Source of the DNA: a virus
Lineage: Duplodnaviria; Caudoviricetes
Direction: 5' to 3' (one strand)
Length of the DNA stretch: 64,000 nucleotides
IMG/VR virus record: IMGVR_UViG_2974506496_000001
Location: 32,001 to 96,000 of that record
The position numbers and the translations under genes are program-made. The notes under the pieces were generated by a model, which searched no databases, had not been told where the DNA came from, and was given only the letters and a program-made list of their open reading frames with translations. Positions 31,042 through 43,435 of the stretch are shown piece after piece (position 1 is the first letter of the stretch; each line of letters starts with the position of its first letter).

Positions 31042-32964
31042 ATGACAGATAGCACTACAGCGCAGAGCCAGACCGTGACGTTAGACCAAGTCATCGCGTC
31101 AGGCGGCCAGATTGTCTTCCTGGACAATGGGCAACTGAAAAGCTTTCCTGTCTCTCAGATCACTGACTTACTGAAAAGCGGCATGTCTACTGACGTGTTG
31201 GGTCAGGCTGATTCTCTGAGTATGTTTGGTCAAGTGGAGTCGTTCGAGGCTCTACGTAAGCTTAAGCCACAGAAAGAAGGTGCACGCATCTCTCTTCGTG
31301 GCTGGAACAAAGGCAGTTGTCTGGGTGGCGGTGAGTTCATTGGTCATCTCGTCACCAAAGATCTTAAAGCCCGTCCAGATGATGGCGGTATGATTGCAGC
31401 CGGTAGCGGGTTCTTCTGGGAACGTGTGTGCTCAGATTGCGGGCAAATGAATGTCACTCACTTCGGTGCGCTTCCTGGCGCCACTGCAGCGACTGATTGC
31501 GTGCCAGCAATGACCGCCATGCTGAACTGGAGTAATGCCAACGCTGTTGGTTTAGGAATTCAATTCCCAGCCGGTACTTTCTTCGCTTCCAGTTTAAAGT
31601 TCACCAAAGAGATCGGGTATTTCCGTATCGCCGGTAACCACATCAACTTTGGTTATTTTGCTAACACGGTATTGGTGAGTGACGCTACTGAAAACTTTAT
31701 GTTGGATGTTGCGGCCCGTCGGGTTGAGTTGGCAAACATCATCTTCCGCGGTGTGAGTACTACTGAGAAGCCGAATAAGAAAGGGATCTTTAATAACATC
31801 GTCATTGGTGGTCAGTACTTCAACATGACCTGTGTGCGGTTTGAGAAAATCGGCGGGACCTGTGTTAATCTGATCGATACTCTCGATACCAAGATGACAC
31901 AATGGTACGCGTCACAATGTACTGGTGATGTGATCGTTAACAAATGGTCCGATCGTCAGGCAGGTGGCTGGAACCATACCACTGCTGTTGAAATGACCAA
32001 CTTTAACATCCAGAAGTGTGTTGGTGGTAAAGTGTTTGACATGCAGCGCTGCGCTCAGTCGTTTATCACTAATGGCTGGATCGAGCACTGTGATGATCCA
32101 GGCGACCTGTCTAATGGTCAATGGACGGTAAATGGCCTGAGTATCGAAGATTGTAAGAAACCATTAAAGGCCTCTTACGCTCGCTTTATTGAGATCCAGC
32201 GTAACCTGCAGTCCGGGTCACGAATCGACTACTCCATTGACCCAGAGCTCGAAGAGTGGCTGAGTGAATGGGAACGCGGTCGTCTGGATATCGCCAACCA
32301 CGGCATCTTCATCGACGGTACCTTAGAGCCGGGTACGATCATGTCTCGCAACAAGCTGAGCAACAGCAGCGACAAAGCGAAATGGTTCCGGGTCGGTACC
32401 TGGTACAGCCCATCTGAAGGCGACTCCATTGACATCAACCTGGTTGGTACTGGTAACTTCCTGTCGGTCGCACCAAAGCTTGATGATATCGATGGTGTGC
32501 GTCAAGGTGGCGGTAACACCCTGATCCGTGTGCAGTTGAAGAAAGACTCCGTAGGTGCGACCTTAGAACCACATGGTTCAAGTCCCCTGCAAGCGGCGAA
32601 GATTGCCAAAGTCGGTGCCGGTAAGTTTGTGATCTACGCCCAGCTGAAACCGTATACCCGTAATGTGATCCCGGTGATTGTTGCAACCGGTGCCACGCAC
32701 TACGAAGCCGGTGTCTCTTATTACTTCCGTCCGGCGATTGCCTCGATGAGTGATGAAGAGATCGCAGCAGTGCCGGATGCGGTGGTGATTGCTGAACAGT
32801 GGTCGCTCGGTCAACTGGCCGGTGTGGGCGCCACTAACGAAGGTAACCTGATGCTGAAGAGTAAGATCGTTAACGATCACTTGCAGGTACAGGTCATGGT
32901 TAGCCAAGCACAATGGGCGAAACCAGAACTTCGTTATATCGAGCTGAAGAAAGAAGCCAAGTAA
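31042..32964 (+). CDS. AmsF/WceF-like tailspike-fold glycan-active protein (putative EPS depolymerase)
   Basis: SFEALR..KP..G.RI.LRGW...GGGEF, DDGG.IA...W.R, THFGA, FPAGTF followed by a beta-helix-like region. Confidence 0.75.
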   Translation: MTDSTTAQSQTVTLDQVIASGGQIVFLDNGQLKSFPVSQITDLLKSGMSTDVLGQADSLSMFGQVESFEALRKLKPQKEGARISLRGWNKGSCLGGGEFIGHLVTKDLKARPDDGGMIAAGSGFFWERVCSDCGQMNVTHFGALPGATAATDCVPAMTAMLNWSNANAVGLGIQFPAGTFFASSLKFTKEIGYFRIAGNHINFGYFANTVLVSDATENFMLDVAARRVELANIIFRGVSTTEKPNKKGIFNNIVIGGQYFNMTCVRFEKIGGTCVNLIDTLDTKMTQWYASQCTGDVIVNKWSDRQAGGWNHTTAVEMTNFNIQKCVGGKVFDMQRCAQSFITNGWIEHCDDPGDLSNGQWTVNGLSIEDCKKPLKASYARFIEIQRNLQSGSRIDYSIDPELEEWLSEWERGRLDIANHGIFIDGTLEPGTIMSRNKLSNSSDKAKWFRVGTWYSPSEGDSIDINLVGTGNFLSVAPKLDDIDGVRQGGGNTLIRVQLKKDSVGATLEPHGSSPLQAAKIAKVGAGKFVIYAQLKPYTRNVIPVIVATGATHYEAGVSYYFRPAIASMSDEEIAAVPDAVVIAEQWSLGQLAGVGATNEGNLMLKSKIVNDHLQVQVMVSQAQWAKPELRYIELKKEAK

Positions 32965-35769: not shown

Positions 35770-36351
35770 ATGTCAAAGAAACTCGATACCCGTAAAAGTA
35801 TGTTCCTGGCCTTGGTGTTACGCCACCGTCCCGAAGAGATCGGAATTACCCTGGATGAGAACGGCTGGGCCAAAGTCAGCGAAGTGATCACCGGGTTTAC
35901 CTTTACCGGGCGTGGGCTCTCATTACCTGAGCTTGAGATCATCGTTGAGACGGATGAGAAGAAGCGTTACCAGCTCTCTGACGATAAGTGCTATATCCGG
36001 GCCGTGCAGGGGCATTCTCACGAGAGCGTGATGAACATGCAGCTGGAAGTGGCGACACCGCCAAAGTACTTGTATCACGGCACCCAACAGATCTCCTGTG
36101 AATCGATCGAGCGACAAGGGATCTTGCGCCTTAAACGTTTATATGTCCACCTAACGGATGACATCGAAGCGGCTTGGCGCGCAGCAACTCGTAAACGAAC
36201 AGCCGGTGCAGTCTACCGAATCGACACCGAGAAGATGACGCGGATGGGCCATGTGTTCTATCGCGCTGAGAACGGGGTCTGGCTGGCGAAGCGCATTCCT
36301 TTCTCAGTCATTGAGATGGTTGATGCACATGACGAAGAAACAAGTACCTGA
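35770..36351 (+). CDS. kptA: RNA 2'-phosphotransferase (Tpt1/KptA)
   Basis: LRH.P..IG..LD..GW, D.KKRY, IRAVQGHS, LYHGT, YVHL, NGVWL. Confidence 0.95.
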   Translation: MSKKLDTRKSMFLALVLRHRPEEIGITLDENGWAKVSEVITGFTFTGRGLSLPELEIIVETDEKKRYQLSDDKCYIRAVQGHSHESVMNMQLEVATPPKYLYHGTQQISCESIERQGILRLKRLYVHLTDDIEAAWRAATRKRTAGAVYRIDTEKMTRMGHVFYRAENGVWLAKRIPFSVIEMVDAHDEETST

Positions 36352-36613
36352 GTGGTGGCACGTCCCCATGTTACCCATTGGGTTCATGATGATTTGGGTA
36401 GGATATGTAATAGGTGGGCAGTTCCTCAGTTTCTGGGGGTGTATCTGTGTCACGTTGATTTGTGGTGGGGTTTCGTACCAGCACTGCATGCGCTCAACCA
36501 AGTATCGCAAAAATTCCGTAAGCTGGTTTATCTGTTGGAATGCTTACGGTATCATCGCGTGTTTGGGTATTGGGTTTATGGTAGCGGCAATTTATCTAGG
36601 CGGAGTCAAATAA
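36329..36613 (+). CDS. small multi-pass membrane protein
   Basis: Three hydrophobic segments. Confidence 0.65.
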   Translation: MTKKQVPEWWHVPMLPIGFMMIWVGYVIGGQFLSFWGCICVTLICGGVSYQHCMRSTKYRKNSVSWFICWNAYGIIACLGIGFMVAAIYLGGVK

Positions 36614-36886
36614 GTGAAAAGTAAAACAGGCAGTAAGTTAACACGCACGTTGTTGTTTTGTTTTGGTGCTTACATCACGGGGATGTTTGCCTTGATGATG
36701 ATCCTGTCATCACAAAGCACTGCAGGCATCACTGCAGGGAACTATGACAAAATGAGCGTGGATGACTCGCCTGAGTTTATTTTAACAGATCGCAGTAATG
36801 GATGTAGATACGTCTATGACTCGGTTACCAAAACAGCCCACACTGCAACAGGCTTCGATTACTGCCTGTCGCTAAGGAAAGAATAA
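36614..36886 (+). CDS. membrane-anchored small protein
   Basis: TM segment then D...GCRY motif. Confidence 0.65.
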   Translation: MKSKTGSKLTRTLLFCFGAYITGMFALMMILSSQSTAGITAGNYDKMSVDDSPEFILTDRSNGCRYVYDSVTKTAHTATGFDYCLSLRKE

Positions 36887-36958
36887 TGGTTCGTGCTTAT
36901 CGACACTCTGAGCTGCTACGATGGCCGCATCCCGCGGCCTGCACCCGGAGTTCGTTCT

Positions 36959-37186
36959 ATGTCTATTGCAGTCAACCGTCATCACGCTAAACGTTTAAAG
37001 GCCAAACGTAAACATTACTGGAACGTCGGCGGGAAACGCCAGAACAACAAGGCGGTGGGAATTATCTTCCATACCCCGTGCAAATGCAGCTGCACTATGT
37101 GCGGTAACCAACGCAAGCATTGGGGTCGCCCGATCCAGGAAGTGAAACAAGCGGCCCGTTTTAGTGATACGGTCACTGACATTTAA
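36959..37186 (+). CDS. small basic Cys-rich (putative Zn-binding) protein
   Basis: PCKCSCTMCGN.R; GGAG SD before ATG 36959. Confidence 0.7.
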   Translation: MSIAVNRHHAKRLKAKRKHYWNVGGKRQNNKAVGIIFHTPCKCSCTMCGNQRKHWGRPIQEVKQAARFSDTVTDI

Positions 37187-37234
37187 CCATGCAAGGGGGG
37201 TTGTTGGCTCCCCTTCTTTATTTGAGGAATCCGC

Positions 37235-37600
37235 ATGAAACGCGGCTACCCATCAGGCCAACCGATTGAAGTCGAAGTCGGTGGAGTCATGTACCAATTT
37301 AACCCCCTTGAAAACATGCTGGCTGATCTGCGTGCCAATAAGTTGATCATCGTGTGTTGTAGTAATAAGAAGCGCGCCATTACCGATATCTGGATGTGCG
37401 ATGCCGAGATCGACTACTCGACGCAGTCACGCATGGAACACATCCTGGTCAGTGATCGTTGCAAGCAGTTCACCAAAGACTACGCCTTAACGCGAGTAGT
37501 GGATGTTGATAGCCGGTCATTGACGATAGCCGGTCCAGATAAAAAGATGCTGTCGATGGTGATTATGGGGGATACCCTCTACGCCGTTAAGCCAAGTTAA
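37235..37600 (+). CDS. hypothetical protein
   Basis: GAGG SD. Confidence 0.7.
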   Translation: MKRGYPSGQPIEVEVGGVMYQFNPLENMLADLRANKLIIVCCSNKKRAITDIWMCDAEIDYSTQSRMEHILVSDRCKQFTKDYALTRVVDVDSRSLTIAGPDKKMLSMVIMGDTLYAVKPS

Positions 37601-37623
37601 CAGAACAGCGGTTGGGTGCCTCT

Positions 37624-37725
37624 ATGAACAATGTTTGGCTTTTAGTAATGGCCCTTATTTATACAGCAGGGCTTATTGCCGCATGTGTGGTTGCACGCAT
37701 GGCAGTCTTTCATCATGTGATCTAA
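37624..37725 (+). CDS. 33-aa single-TM peptide (not in ORF track)
   Basis: MNNVWLLVMALIYTAGLIAACVVARMAVFHHVI fills the gap between two genes. Confidence 0.5.
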   Translation: MNNVWLLVMALIYTAGLIAACVVARMAVFHHVI

Positions 37726-37734
37726 AGGGCAATT

Positions 37735-38013
37735 ATGAGTAAAGGTACTTTGAAAGGCCTTGGTGTGGTGTTGGCGTGTCTTGTGATTGGCGTATTGCTG
37801 TTTGTTTTTGCAACCGCTGTTCAAGCTGCCGATACACCCGTTAACCCCCACTGTGTTGCCATTACTAACGACAGTACAATTACCACCCAGTGTGACGACG
37901 GTACCGTGGTCATTACCAACACCGCAACCTCGACGGTGATGGTGTGTCATGTAAGTAAAGAAACAAAAGGTCTTCCGCAATGCGTGAAAGACCGGGTTGT
38001 CATTTCTAATTAA
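37735..38013 (+). CDS. secreted/membrane-anchored Cys-containing protein
   Basis: Signal-like N-terminus ending AVQA; four Cys in the mature part. Confidence 0.7.
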
Positions 38014-38036
38014 CGTTATTCTTCGGAGCTACACAC

Positions 38037-39170
38037 ATGCAGTACAGTACCTTTAATACCACTAAAAACGATCAGATGGCTGAACCGATGTTCCTGGGTC
38101 AGTCGGTTAACGTCTCACGTTATGATCAGCAGAAGTACCCCGCGTTCGAAAAGCTGATTGAGAAACAACTTTCATTCTTCTGGCGCCCTGAAGAGGTGGA
38201 TGTTTCGCAAGACCGTATCGACTTCCAGGGGTTACCGGATCATGAGAAACACATCTTCGTGTCTAACCTGAAATACCAAACCCTGCTGGACTCGATTCAG
38301 GGTCGTAGTCCGAACGTGGCCCTGCTGCCGATCTGTTCTATCCCGGAACTCGAAACCTGGATTGAAACCTGGGCGTTCTCTGAAACGATCCACTCGCGCT
38401 CATACACCCACATCATCCGTAATATCTTTACTGACCCCTCCATCGTGTTTGATGACATCGTGACCAACGAACACATCAAAGCGCGTGCTGAGTCCGTCAC
38501 GGAGTATTACGACCAGCTGATTGAAATGACCATGTACCTCAACTTACTGGGTGAAGGTACTCATGTAATCAATGGTAAGAAAGTCGTGGTGTCGATGCGT
38601 GCTATCAAGCGTCTGGTCTACCTGTGCATCGTGTCAGTCAACGTGCTGGAAGCCATCCGCTTCTATGTCTCCTTTGCCTGCTCGTTTGCCTTTGCTGAAC
38701 GCGAGCTGATGGAAGGCAACGCCAAGATCATTAAACTGATCGCCCGTGATGAAGCCCTGCATCTGACCGGCACCCAGCACATGATCATGTTAATGAAGTC
38801 CGGTGCTGACGATGCTGAGATGGCGGAAATCGTTAAAGAGTGTGAAGCAGAAACATACGCACTCTTTAAGGACGCTGCAGAGCAGGAGAAAGACTGGGCG
38901 AACTATCTGTTCCAGGATGGGTCGATGATCGGTCTGAACAAAGAGATCGTGTGTCAGTACATCGAATACATCACCAACATCCGTATTCGCGCCATCGGTT
39001 ACGATGACATCTACGCCGGTGTCAAAGCTAACCCTATCCCGTGGATCAACTCCTGGCTGGTTTCTGACAACGTGCAACAAGCCCCTCAAGAGTCAGAGAT
39101 TACCTCGTATTTAGTAGGTCAGATCGACTCAACTGTCGATGCAGATGCGTTTGATAACTTCGAACTTTAA
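38037..39170 (+). CDS. nrdB: ribonucleotide reductase class Ia beta subunit
   Basis: [48 protein letters not shown]. Confidence 0.98.
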
Positions 39171-39227
39171 TACGTGATCAGCTTCACTCACGTAGAGGGC
39201 TGATCGCTAGCCCTTTATGGAGAGTGT

Positions 39228-40061
39228 ATGTCTGAGATAAAAGATAACCCGGATAACTGGAAAGTGATTCCGGGTTACTCACGTTATGAGATCAACGAAG
39301 TCGGCGTTGTAAGAAAGATACATAACAAGAAGGTGATGAAACAATGGCTGCGTGGTAATTATACCGCCACTGCTATCACTTCTGATAATAAGTCAACTAG
39401 TAGAATAGAATCTATTCATATTTTACTGTGCCTTACATTTATTGGTCCAAAGCCCTTACCTGAACCTGGGCACAAACTTGTTACCGCTAACCACAAGGAC
39501 GGTAACAAACTTAACAATGTGAGGTCTAATGTAGAATGGTTATCCAATTCTGGTAATATTCTGCATGCTTACAAGAACCGGCTAAATAAATCATCACAGC
39601 ACCTGCGTCTAACCAATGTGGTCTCTGGTGAAGTTGTCGACCTGCATTCTTACCGCGAATTATCCAAATGGATGGGTAATCCTAACCTGCGCGGAAGAAT
39701 GGAGTATCTGAAGTATCGTAACAAGCTTTATCAAGGCCAGTGGCGAATAGAACTTCTTGGCGAATCAGAGAAGTCTTCAGGGTCTCGTACCAGTAAACAA
39801 GTATGCGTAATGGATGTGGCTAAACGACTTGGATTGAGGGGTGGTGAGTTTGATACTTTCATCTTTAATTCCATGCATGATGCTGCAGCGGCATTAGGCG
39901 TAAGTCGCAAAGGTATTGGTCGGTCGATTAGTACCAAAGGACGCCATGTTGTAAATGGGTACGCTATATCGCTATCATTTGACGATATGACTAATATCAC
40001 TTATGACAAAGCGTATGTGGAGATTAGTCTTAAATGGGCGAAACTCAGGGGTAAGAAGTAA
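39228..40061 (+). mobile_element. free-standing NUMOD4-HNH homing endonuclease gene
   Basis: WK.IPGYSRYEIN..G.VR (NUMOD4); H.L....F, NHKDGNKLNN..SNVEW (HNH); visibly more AT-rich than nrdB. Confidence 0.9.
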
Positions 40062-40129
40062 GTTCTTATCTGGTCGGTCAGATCGACTCGAAAGTGGACG
40101 CCAACGATTTCGACGATTTCCAACTGTAA
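40061..40129 (+). pseudogene. nrdB: orphaned second copy of the nrdB 3' end
   Basis: Encodes [22 protein letters not shown] versus nrdB end [22 protein letters not shown]; no start codon. Confidence 0.9.
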
Positions 40130-40135
40130 CTGCTA

Positions 40136-40161
40136 GGCACCCATGCTTCGGTGTGGGTGCT
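40136..40161 (+). terminator. hairpin after orphan nrdB tail
   Basis: GGCACCCATGC-TTCG-GTGTGGGTGCT. Confidence 0.65.
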
Positions 40162-40177
40162 GTATAAAGGAGGATGT

Positions 40178-40774
40178 ATGGATGTAGGGCAACGCAATGT
40201 CCAGATCTCAGATCAGTATGAGATTATCGGCATGGCGGGCGTAAACTACCTGCCTTTAAAGAAGTCTTCCTCCGATACATACCGCGTGGTGTTGTGTCGG
40301 TTGGATGGGTTAGGGCGTGACAACACTAACTTGCATTATGACATCGATGATGCCTTCACTGACCACTACCGCTTTATCACCCAGCAACTCCCCTTTGCCG
40401 AATTTGATGGCAGGGATCGTGTCACCACACTCATGCAGAACTGGCAAGGCAAAGCAACCACCGAGATCATTGACAACATCTTTAGTTCAATTGATCCCGA
40501 CGCAGGCGCCTTTACGCTAGAAAGCATCAGTGTGGAAAACGGTTACCTTTATGGCGAGGTCAGATTAGCCAATAGCATTGTGGGAACGAATCTCTCCATG
40601 ATGCTGAACCATCCACGTCCCGATCAGGCGGCCATGATCTTTGGTGTTCGCTACCTGTCGGTCAATACCCGGCTTGACGGACTGCAATATGCTGATGTCA
40701 AGAAGATCTGTGCGTATGACGTGAATATCGTCAGCGAAACTGAATTAACCCAACGTCGTAACGGCGTGAAATAA
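40178..40774 (+). CDS. degenerate prohead-protease (S80-like) homologue
   Basis: AEF..ID..A..LESI.VE...YGEV...G..L..FGVR..AYDV; similar to 3775. Confidence 0.45.
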   Translation: MDVGQRNVQISDQYEIIGMAGVNYLPLKKSSSDTYRVVLCRLDGLGRDNTNLHYDIDDAFTDHYRFITQQLPFAEFDGRDRVTTLMQNWQGKATTEIIDNIFSSIDPDAGAFTLESISVENGYLYGEVRLANSIVGTNLSMMLNHPRPDQAAMIFGVRYLSVNTRLDGLQYADVKKICAYDVNIVSETELTQRRNGVK

Positions 40775-40808
40775 TGAACCGTTTAAAAGGTGCTGTGAGA
40801 ACCTATAA

Positions 40809-41426
40809 ATGAAAAGAACAAAAAATATAAAGCTTGATCGTTTTCGTAAGGCATGGAAATTTAAGAAGGTTACGCTGGCATTGATGGTGGTAACCGGATC
40901 GTTTTACCTGGTGGCGTGCGATGAGCCGCGTGATCAGCAAGTGCAGATGTATCAGAATGCGGATGACTGTAGTCGAGCTCGCCCGCAAGACAAGCAGCGC
41001 TGTTCTGATGCGTACAATAACGCTCTGCGTGAATCTGAACGTACCGCCCCGCGTTACGGATCGAAAGGAGATTGTGATGCCGAGTTTGGCTCTGACAATT
41101 GCTACCAATCCACGGCTCATAGCCCGACCTGGATGTCGTATATGGGCGGATACATGTACGGGCGCAACGGGAGTTACGCACAGCCGTTGTATTCCTCACG
41201 GGTAACGTCAAGTCCTGCCTATCACCGCTACGTCGATGCTGGCGGACGTAACTACGGCAGTGCTATCTCTGGACGCTCGATTAATACCACACGCAGCGCG
41301 TTAGCGCCCAAGCCTGTAGTCACTTCAACCATTACCCGTGGCGGGTTCGGTGCAAGCGTGGCACACATGAGTAGTTCTCATTCTTCGTCCAGTCACAGCA
41401 GTGGCGGACATTCATCTGGCGGTTAA
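40809..41426 (+). CDS. YgiB/DUF1190-like lipoprotein
   Basis: MKRTK.I...FRK, LVAC lipobox, YQNADDC, APRY....C.AEFG...C, TITRGGFG. Confidence 0.85.
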   Translation: MKRTKNIKLDRFRKAWKFKKVTLALMVVTGSFYLVACDEPRDQQVQMYQNADDCSRARPQDKQRCSDAYNNALRESERTAPRYGSKGDCDAEFGSDNCYQSTAHSPTWMSYMGGYMYGRNGSYAQPLYSSRVTSSPAYHRYVDAGGRNYGSAISGRSINTTRSALAPKPVVTSTITRGGFGASVAHMSSSHSSSSHSSGGHSSGG

Positions 41427-41435
41427 GGAACAGTA

Positions 41436-41957
41436 ATGCAAATCCCCGGTATGCCAACTTCATTTGAAGAGCTGTGCAGTATCATTGTTAAACTCGGGTT
41501 AGTTGATGCCTCGGTTGAAAAGACCACTGAGCTTTTGTGGCAGTCTGTCGAAGACCACGGCTACACCCATCGGTGGGACGACCCAGATCAAGAGATGACG
41601 TCAACAGAACGTTGGTTCAACCGCGCAGAAGAGTTGAAAATGACGTTCCATGGTGATGTTGTCGCCATGCTGGTTGATTGGTCTATTATGACGGGTCGTA
41701 TGGCTCAGTACCATAATGACATTGATTATCAGCAATATTATCGCAACTGGTTGGCTTCGCAGATCAGTGTTAAGCTACAACTCGATGAGGAAGGCGTCAC
41801 CGAAACGACCTTACATCCACCAACCTATCGCTATCTTCAAGGTGGCAAGATCTTTGTCATCAATGCAGCCACTTCTGGTAACGGTGGTGGCATCAACTAT
41901 TACACCATGTCATTAGAGGAGTATGTGAAGTACATTAAAACGCAACCGGCTATTTAA
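41436..41957 (+). CDS. hypothetical protein
   Basis: AAGGA SD. Confidence 0.75.
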   Translation: MQIPGMPTSFEELCSIIVKLGLVDASVEKTTELLWQSVEDHGYTHRWDDPDQEMTSTERWFNRAEELKMTFHGDVVAMLVDWSIMTGRMAQYHNDIDYQQYYRNWLASQISVKLQLDEEGVTETTLHPPTYRYLQGGKIFVINAATSGNGGGINYYTMSLEEYVKYIKTQPAI

Positions 41958-41990
41958 TGTAAGAGCCCGCTATCAGTAGGAGAGTTACGT

Positions 41991-42293
41991 ATGGCGAACA
42001 AAAGTGTTATCGGCGTGATCAAATACAGTCGGGTGGACAACAAAGACACCTGGACCGTCTACCAGCACGGTAAACACGTTGAGCTTTTCCAGAAAGCTTT
42101 CCAGCATCCCATCGAGGCGTTTAAGCTTCGGGATATTTCCAAAGTAGGTCGGCCTGAAGTCAGTCATGCCTCGGGCCATTATCCGATCGTTGATAACCCC
42201 AGTATCCGCGTCTTCTACGAAGATGGCAGTATCGGTGTGGGTGCGGGTGCGTTAATCAACATCATGTTGCAACAGTATCAATTAACGGAGTGA
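41991..42293 (+). CDS. hypothetical protein
   Basis: AGGAG SD. Confidence 0.7.
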   Translation: MANKSVIGVIKYSRVDNKDTWTVYQHGKHVELFQKAFQHPIEAFKLRDISKVGRPEVSHASGHYPIVDNPSIRVFYEDGSIGVGAGALINIMLQQYQLTE

Positions 42294-42297
42294 CATC

Positions 42298-42588
42298 ATG
42301 GGTAAAGTCAAAGAGATTTTGTATGGTCGCCGCGGTAGCACGGCCGGTGAGATTCTTAAGTTAGAATACATGGAGCCGTTAAACCTCACCGTCGATGAAA
42401 CAGCAAAGAAACTGAAAGTTGCAAAGTCTACCATCAGCCGGATTATTAATGGCCGTTGCCGCTTGAGCAAGCCCCTTGCCACCAAACTTGCCAAAGCGTT
42501 CGCCACTACGCCGGAATACTGGATGAACTTTGCTGACAACTGCACCAACCCCTATCCAAACTTGCGGGCCAAGGGCTGGTACAGATGA
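42298..42588 (+). CDS. higA: HigA-family antitoxin / XRE HTH protein
   Basis: GEIL..EY.EPL.L....A..L.V...TISRI.NG....LA..F.TTPEYW.N. Confidence 0.85.
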   Translation: MGKVKEILYGRRGSTAGEILKLEYMEPLNLTVDETAKKLKVAKSTISRIINGRCRLSKPLATKLAKAFATTPEYWMNFADNCTNPYPNLRAKGWYR

Positions 42589-42806
42589 ACATCGCCGAAC
42601 CCATCTATGAGGTGGAAGTCGGCAAAACGTATCTGTCACCTTCGGGCTTGCCATTCGAAGTGTTGTTCTTAGCCGCGCATGGTCAGGACTGCACGGTGCC
42701 GATGGTGGTATACCGCAACCTCACCCCGACGTACGACAAACCTGCAGGGCAGATCTGGACCACATCGGAGTCACTCTTTCTAACGCAATTCCGCGTGCCT
42801 GCGTGA
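42585..42806 (+). CDS. DUF1653-like protein
   Basis: Y....G..FEVL..A.H......MVVYR.L......W......F. Confidence 0.7.
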   Translation: MNIAEPIYEVEVGKTYLSPSGLPFEVLFLAAHGQDCTVPMVVYRNLTPTYDKPAGQIWTTSESLFLTQFRVPA

Positions 42807-42850
42807 TGCTATGGCGGTAACTGACCGTCCATCACTACAGAGGCAAGCGC

Positions 42851-43156
42851 ATGTCTACGAACGAGAACTTTCATGTATCCGATCAGGCGATTATCGATGC
42901 CATCCTGGAATACACCCGTAACGGGAAAGAACCAGCTGTAGTCAAGTACGACCCCGATGGCCCTGAAGCAGAACGCATGAGTCAGGAACATCGGATTGTC
43001 ACCTGGTTTCAAGACATCCGTACCATTGTTGACGCGGTATGTCAACGTCCAGGTTTCTCCGGGCTTAACGTGCTGAAGATCGCAACCCGTGCTATGGAAC
43101 AGGATATCATAGCACAGTCAGCGGGACCGGCATCGCCTATTAACCCTGAACTGTAG
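42851..43156 (+). CDS. hypothetical protein
   Basis: GAGG SD. Confidence 0.7.
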   Translation: MSTNENFHVSDQAIIDAILEYTRNGKEPAVVKYDPDGPEAERMSQEHRIVTWFQDIRTIVDAVCQRPGFSGLNVLKIATRAMEQDIIAQSAGPASPINPEL

Positions 43157-43177
43157 AAAATAAGAAGACTTTCACAC

Positions 43178-43435
43178 ATGCAATTAAAAGAACTGCTTAC
43201 CTGCATTCGCCCTGGTGACGTTATCACCAATACCGCCTGGCCACAGGGACGGACCTTTACCGTCTCAACGGAGTTCATGAAGTTTCATACCGGTCGTGGT
43301 ACGGATGTTCATGAACGCAATTCATGTCCAGATGGTGCGTGGCACGGTTGGTCGGTGGCAAACAAATATGCCACTGTCCTTAACCGTCGTGCAGTAGCGC
43401 AATCCCACAACCCGATCAAAGAGGACGTTTCATGA
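43178..43435 (+). CDS. hypothetical protein
   Basis: ORF in gene run. Confidence 0.65.
   Translation: MQLKELLTCIRPGDVITNTAWPQGRTFTVSTEFMKFHTGRGTDVHERNSCPDGAWHGWSVANKYATVLNRRAVAQSHNPIKEDVS

Follow-up and report, generated by a model that had tools for sequence, protein, structure and literature searches.

A putative HNH homing element that replaces the 3′ end of nrdB in an Erwinia jumbo phage

In the window (the 64,000-nucleotide stretch of phage DNA analysed here, positions 32,001 to 96,000 of the IMG/VR record IMGVR_UViG_2974506496_000001), a putative HNH homing endonuclease gene was found between two copies of the 3′ end of nrdB. The copy upstream of the HNH gene completes nrdB in frame and looks foreign, and the copy downstream is the displaced native end of the gene. 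We propose that the free-standing, I-HmuI-like HNH gene and the spare last 22 codons of nrdB together form a homing element that replaces the end of its target gene, a reading to which we assign a probability of roughly 0.8.

The HNH gene and the two tails of nrdB

The NrdB protein encoded in the window is 92% identical to NrdB of phage AH06 and 77% identical to NrdB of Pantoea. In E. coli NrdB, the C-terminal 20 residues dock on NrdA and Y356 lies on the radical path. The attached tail, with which nrdB of the window ends, retains the Tyr and the F-x-x-F-x-L anchor pattern present in all homologues. Attached and orphan tail have 46 of 66 nt and 16 of 21 amino acids in common, and in the conserved tail core they differ at 3 of 21 nt, all synonymous. 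A local translated search of the left against the right flank of the HNH gene gave E-values of about 1e-7 to 1e-9 for this repeat, and of 238 mismatched control flank pairs 1 gave a hit; the repeat is not a chance match. The orphan tail begins 2 bases past the HNH stop codon. It does not share the frame of the HNH gene, has a stop in its own frame just upstream and lacks a start codon and a ribosome-binding site; since it is out of frame and preceded by a stop, it is not translated within any long ORF. An earlier note on this DNA had described the HNH gene, the duplicated nrdB tail and a TTCG hairpin after the second copy; ORFs, translations and alignment agree with all of its coordinates, the hairpin is where it had been placed, and the HNH gene between two nrdB tail copies is a real feature of the sequence (Table 1).

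Table 1 Features of the nrdB–HNH region, in positions of the window.
Feature	Position	Strand	Basis and remarks
nrdB, class Ia ribonucleotide reductase β subunit, intact, 377 aa	38037..39170	+	ORF; Pfam PF00268 Ribonuc_red_sm, E 1e-52
nrdB patch shared with MadMel, 155 nt, 97.4% identity, sharp edges	38269..38423	+	codon alignment, mismatch map
Attached (replacement) tail with Tyr356-equivalent, NrdA-docking peptide and stop; 21 codons + stop	39105..39170	+	translation, GC3, alignment
Predicted stable RNA hairpin in the nrdB–HNH spacer	39185..39226	+	pairs most of the HNH Shine-Dalgarno sequence GGAGAG, 39219–39224
Free-standing I-HmuI-like NUMOD4/HNH putative homing endonuclease gene, 277 aa	39228..40061	+	ORF; profile match to I-HmuI
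Right junction, 12 nt, E-V-S-S in the tail frame, nrdB-like, overlaps the HNH stop	40055..40066	+	MadMel backbone E-I-T-S; N1M2 junction similar
Orphan native nrdB tail + stop, untranslated remnant	40064..40129	+	65/66 nt with MadMel; opens the 99.2% block 40064–43200
Native nrdB 3′ hairpin, 11 bp, UUCG loop, stranded along with the orphan tail	40136..40161	+	same hairpin 3′ of nrdB in MadMel and AH06

As a single sequence, the HNH protein stayed below the Pfam gathering scores, with 18.7 bits for NUMOD4 (cut-off 23.4) and 17.4 bits for HNH_3 (cut-off 24.8). A profile of nine HNH homologues matched I-HmuI (PDB 1U3E) with an E-value of 2.8e-8 across the N-terminal 120 residues, and N88, H89, N101, N110 and H113 of the HNH motif, which aligns to that of I-HmuI, are invariant in the 9 homologues. 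Three homologues (P0002–P0004) are 86%, 82% and 46% identical, and another one (P0006) carries PF13392 according to its precomputed annotation. The 271-kb record from which the window was taken holds one member of this HNH family only, and single-protein scans of IMG/VR and the JGI metagenomes for close relatives retrieved just distant HNH genes. The gene is free-standing: it is an ORF of its own with stops on both sides, has its own Shine-Dalgarno sequence and shows no Rfam match. The predicted fold of 39160–39245, around the hairpin that separates nrdB from the HNH gene, had an energy of −28.5 kcal/mol (z −3.75), and 0 of 200 shuffled sequences folded as well. By hiding the ribosome-binding site, this hairpin would probably damp translation of the HNH gene, consistent with the control by RBS-sequestering hairpins described for Aeh1 mobE and I-TevI (PMC2988022). 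A scan for σ70 promoters and terminators revealed nothing that exceeded shuffled sequences.

In T-even phages, nrdB contains a group I intron that harbours an endonuclease gene (PMC1865063, PMC2790892), and by analogy the HNH region could be an intron, or could be spliced out or bypassed in some other way, with the downstream tail as real exon 2. Too little non-coding sequence is available for this: the spacer from the nrdB stop to the HNH start measures only 57 nt, and the HNH stop is separated from the orphan tail by 2 nt. Besides, the upstream nrdB is complete, stop codon included, and therefore needs no splicing. A group I intron or spliced insert was ruled out by an Rfam scan of 38000–40400, which returned zero matches at E-values up to 1, and we give this reading next to no credence. 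The claim that the arrangement is free of introns thus holds, on the Rfam scan as well as on the complete nrdB.

Third codon positions set the attached tail apart. The GC3 value was 0.643 for the nrdB body and 0.636 for the orphan tail, compared with 0.364 for the attached tail (binomial p = 0.007) and 0.403 for the HNH gene. For Leu, the nrdB body uses CTG 19 times and TTA 3 times; for Val, GTA occurs only once. An orphan copy that resembles the nrdB body in its codons and an attached copy that does not had been claimed before, and this contrast was borne out by GC3 and by the Leu and Val codon counts. Judged by composition, the attached tail looks foreign and shares its AT-rich third positions with the HNH gene. 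The Leu that follows the Tyr is encoded by CTG in the two orphan copies (window and phage N1M2, see below) and in 4 of 5 intact HNH-free alleles compared (MadMel, AH06, Kc263 and AH04; TTG in pEt-SU), and by TTA or CTT in the two attached copies. As a source of cleavage resistance, this codon difference is a hint and nothing more.

Sister phages, the native tail and the mosaic nrdB

The window belongs to an Agricanvirus-like Erwinia jumbo phage whose nearest public records are AH06, MadMel and Deimos-Minion. MadMel and Deimos-Minion were 98.5% identical to the window over 36088–38013 and 99.2% identical over 40064–43200; the edges of the segment that is unlike MadMel lie at 38013/38014 and 40063–40067. 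Between these flanks, the window carries nrdB followed by the HNH gene, and MadMel carries a different HNH gene followed by nrdB. The orphan tail matched the nrdB end of MadMel at 65 of 66 nt, and from 40067 on the nrdB end, the hairpin and the next gene are exactly alike in both phages. In MadMel, Deimos-Minion, Desertfox and Rebecca there is no HNH gene at the 3′ site and nrdB is uninterrupted. The earlier note had predicted that HNH-less relatives end nrdB with the version found at 40064, and indeed this was so in all four phages, which also share the hairpin and the gene after it with the window. Of the two copies, the orphan is the native one. The HNH gene is thus present in one and absent from others of a group of near-identical genomes, with sharp edges and an adjoining divergent tract. 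The alignment with the sister phages and the 65/66 match of the orphan also support the claim that a cassette had entered the conserved nrdB end and had left the native tail and its hairpin stranded. Other jumbo-phage NrdBs with window-like bodies (86–95% identical) have tails that share 17–20 of 21 residues with the orphan and 15 of 21 with the attached tail.

AH06 has no HNH gene on either side of nrdB, and its tail matched each of the two copies of the window at 50 of 66 nt; being equidistant from both, it does not refute the reading of the orphan as the native tail. The first 16 codons of the AH06 nrdB end (L001, 4066–4170) had 37 of 48 nt in common with the attached tail vs 32 of 48 with the orphan, and the last 6 codons matched the orphan at 18 of 18 nt; the hairpin also matches. 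This tail might be a chimera of the kind expected if the two tail copies had recombined and the cassette had been lost, a speculative idea that builds on small numbers.

Direct repeats flanking the HNH gene could also have arisen if the nrdB 3′ end had first been duplicated in tandem within this lineage, the copies had diverged and the HNH gene had landed between them later. We consider this order of events very unlikely: the orphan has 65/66 nt in common with the sister tail, and the attached copy, with 46/66 nt and a different composition, has diverged excessively for genomes that are 99% identical.

A homing element that replaces the gene end would be expected to spread as follows. During co-infection, the nuclease would nick or cut an element-free nrdB in the conserved DNA for the start of the tail, S-Y-L-V-G-Q-I-D. 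The break would then be repaired from the element-bearing genome, with the nrdB body and the attached tail as left arm and the orphan tail and the downstream DNA as right arm. The product would be a complete nrdB that ends in the tail of the element, with the old tail and its 3′ hairpin stranded past the HNH gene. The allele of the element itself may escape cutting, its site being split by the insertion and the attached copy being spelled differently. We infer the site of cleavage, the resistance of the attached tail and the route of repair from the anatomy of the locus. The tail that had been called recoded and cleavage-resistant is, accordingly worded, a putatively resistant one; 3 differences in the 21 nt of the core may give no resistance, and the target of the nuclease could be elsewhere than in the nrdB tail. 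The overall interpretation of the earlier note, intron-free intragenic homing, is supported.

The nrdB gene of the window is itself a mosaic with respect to MadMel. In a codon alignment, the first 237 nt were 62% and columns 393–1070 were 72% identical; the patch at 38269–38423 could be retained backbone or part of a discontinuous conversion tract. Directly upstream of nrdB, MadMel encodes a paralogous HNH protein (gp90; L002, 1942–2778) with 43% amino acid identity, and the same was seen in L003. The paralogous HNH gene of MadMel-type phages sits exactly where identity to the window stops, and the 3′-end HNH gene and the 5′-end paralogue were never found together in one genome compared. One model is that nrdB was the target of homing twice, independently, and that a co-conversion tract extends into it from each of the two HNH genes. 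Under this model, the window would have imported about 1.64 kb (38424–40066) from an AH06-like donor, ~680 nt of the nrdB body included. On the other hand, the NrdB body of MadMel is an outlier in its 5′ and 3′ parts compared with a clade of seven window-like NrdBs and, therefore, the body in the window may be native and the insertion shorter; a cleaner insertion in the window and a foreign nrdB body in MadMel may be the alternative. Complete identity to the AH06 nrdB end spans the boundary of body and tail: it covers 11 residues upstream of the attached tail and residues 1–10 of the tail itself (21 aa). This speaks for an import in which the tail was accompanied by at least ~35 nt to the left of 39105. 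By the identity profiles and these alignments, the left edge of the imported DNA would lie somewhere within 38424–39105. A cassette of tail and HNH gene that restores nrdB, as described before, is supported, with the amendment that the import may also hold up to about 680 nt of the nrdB body.

Recurrence in phage N1M2 and at other genes

Klebsiella phage N1M2, a member of another genus, has nrdB, a hairpin, an HNH gene whose product is 46% identical and a second tail that starts at the same Ser-Ser-Tyr codons. The arrangement is thus found at the same site in an independent genome. A tblastn search with the tail peptide gave 532 places in 530 phage records, a collection that excludes the record of the window and its near-identical relatives, and two places per record were found only in both N1M2 accessions. 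An HNH-less relative with both tail copies in tandem was not found among these 530 records. Further, no second tail was detected in 80 IMG/VR nrdB loci, most of which have a distant nrdB with about 55% identity, and neither version of the tail was found in IMG/VR by exact-pattern matching. The 12 nt of the right junction are unlike the MadMel backbone and like the N1M2 junction, indicating that the donor already had the orphan tail and that the right crossover was just inside the orphan. Of the view that insertion of the cassette created the layout with two tails, one part stands, since the native tail was stranded; the other part does not, as N1M2 and the junction show the layout to be older than the window genome.

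The HNH ORF of N1M2 (N1M2_165; L004, 3498–4295) lacks a separate stop codon and stays open, in frame, to the end of the orphan tail, so that its predicted product carries a complete NrdA-docking peptide at the C-terminus. The HNH protein has ~30 C-terminal residues fewer than its relatives. N1M2_165, whose CDS holds 22 nrdB codons, is annotated as “hypothetical protein” in GenBank and as “HNH endonuclease” in RefSeq.

A gene for NrdA (PF02867) is absent from the 98%-complete genome of the window and from N1M2, MadMel and AH06. Therefore, the phage β subunit must use NrdA of the host, and the tail has to dock on it. This would fit a second tail that is functional, as a recombination reservoir for switching the NrdA-docking peptide or, in N1M2, as a peptide displayed on the HNH protein, and so would the N1M2 ORF that continues in frame into the orphan tail and the orphan of the window, which ends like NrdB of the Pantoea host. 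Yet the orphan of the window is out of frame, follows a stop and is without start or RBS, and its perfect match to the sister phages is explained by recency alone, and a function of the second tail appears highly improbable to us.

A screen for duplicated gene termini covered 78 IMG/VR loci with related HNH genes; in the filtered screen, 1 of 238 mismatched control flank pairs gave a hit. Two of the loci (L068, 1546–2674; L076, 1755–2893) carry an insertion past codon 15–16 of a GH108 endolysin gene, namely a related HNH gene on the opposite strand. The first 15–16 endolysin codons are duplicated and flank the HNH gene; the endolysin gene now starts with a replacement head, its original head is stranded beyond the HNH gene, and the arrangement reads like a 5′ mirror image of the nrdB case. 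In a third locus (L039, 2202–3083), the HNH gene (2495–2992) lies between a 105-aa ORF and a diverged copy of the last ~24 residues of this ORF, upstream of a primase-helicase gene. This repeat had an E-value of 5e-8 without composition correction, passed the looser first screen only and was lost with SEG filtering; the locus is likely another replacement-tail cassette. The duplicated gene ends at these three loci indicate that spare gene ends recur in this HNH family.

These findings also bear on a passive swap of modules, in which a foreign block of nrdB and HNH gene was acquired by ordinary or illegitimate recombination, the orphan is the leftover of an imprecise junction and the HNH protein, inactive or directed against another target, was not involved. 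Such a swap would account for an nrdB that is unlike that of MadMel over most of its length, beyond the tail, and jumbo-phage genomes are generally mosaic. It would not lead one to expect that a different genus, with a diverged homologous HNH gene, shows this junction at the very same codon, that gene termini are duplicated beside related HNH genes at other genes, that HNH catalytic residues are conserved or that, in the sister phages, a paralogous HNH gene marks precisely the opposite edge of the divergent tract. We regard a passive swap as unlikely and prefer a homing element that replaces the gene end.

Known systems and possible consequences

The layout is known from fungal mitochondria and from yeast, and the window adds a new example, not a new principle. 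In fungal mitochondria, mobile endonuclease ORFs (mORFs) bring in a foreign C-terminus, by which the native one is displaced; they are described for atp6 of Allomyces macrogynus and for atp6, atp9, cox2 and nad3 of Glomus (PMC3630166 and its reference 48). As in the window, the endonuclease ORF lies between two diverged C-terminal copies, the inserted foreign one in frame and the native one downstream and matching element-free relatives, and, as in N1M2, some of the ORFs share a reading frame with the gene. Unlike the window, the mORFs encode LAGLIDADG or GIY-YIG enzymes and reside in organelle genomes, whereas here an I-HmuI-like HNH enzyme is encoded by a lytic jumbo phage and only 22 codons are duplicated. 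The WHO elements of Torulaspora and Lachancea yeasts target FBA1, and each homing event gives this gene a new 3′ end (PMC7282813). They share homing without splicing, replacement of the 3′ end at each integration and an old end that is left behind, but they encode intein-like LAGLIDADG/zinc-finger nucleases, reside in nuclear genomes and leave clusters of old ends where the window has a single orphan. Cleavage by the WHO enzymes is allele-specific.

Among phages, T4-like free-standing HNH and GIY-YIG endonucleases such as MobE, SegF and SegG resemble the enzyme described here in lying beside a conserved gene of nucleotide metabolism, in their patchy distribution and in co-conversion of the flanks (PMC2790892, PMC2988022), and nrdB is the target of T4 MobE, whose own gene is intergenic (PMC2790892). 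The T4 elements differ in being intergenic and in not needing a spare gene end; a word search of one review (PMC2988022) found no word beginning with “duplicat”. Aeh1 mobE in nrdA is likewise an HNH gene inside a phage RNR gene, and there, too, coding sequence derived from the element rescues the enzyme (PMC3045599). In Aeh1, however, nrdA is split into two polypeptides that reassemble via new tails, whereas nrdB of the window stays in one piece and its old end is discarded (PMC3045599). I-HmuI of Bacillus phage SPO1 (PDB 1U3E) has the same N-terminal NUMOD4-like and HNH region and a C-terminal helix-turn-helix-like segment, but it is intron-encoded in a DNA polymerase gene; the enzyme of the window is free-standing and about 100 residues longer. 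We found no phage paper on a replacement gene end for a free-standing endonuclease in a literature coverage that was incomplete and does not prove absence.

A further idea concerns the host. The last nine residues of the orphan tail agree with those of Pantoea NrdB at 9 of 9 positions, those of the attached tail at 5 of 9. The HNH cassette could be a vehicle that exchanges host-docking tails between phages, by which a Pantoea/Erwinia-like tail was replaced by a diverged one; we consider this unlikely. If true, the tail swap could alter the capture of host NrdA and hence the fit to the host, and the N1M2 HNH protein with its complete docking peptide could bind or block host NrdA.

In sum, the nrdB locus is a clean and recent phage example, resolved to the base, of probable homing into coding sequence with neither intron nor intein. 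With an empty site in an otherwise 99%-identical genome and an occupied site in a second genus, it is directly testable by phage crosses. Two paralogous HNH genes that attack nrdB from both ends in sister phages would explain why nrdB is a mosaic although the rest of these genomes is nearly identical. Annotators should beware of short orphan gene ends that follow HNH genes, as they may be the footprints of such elements.
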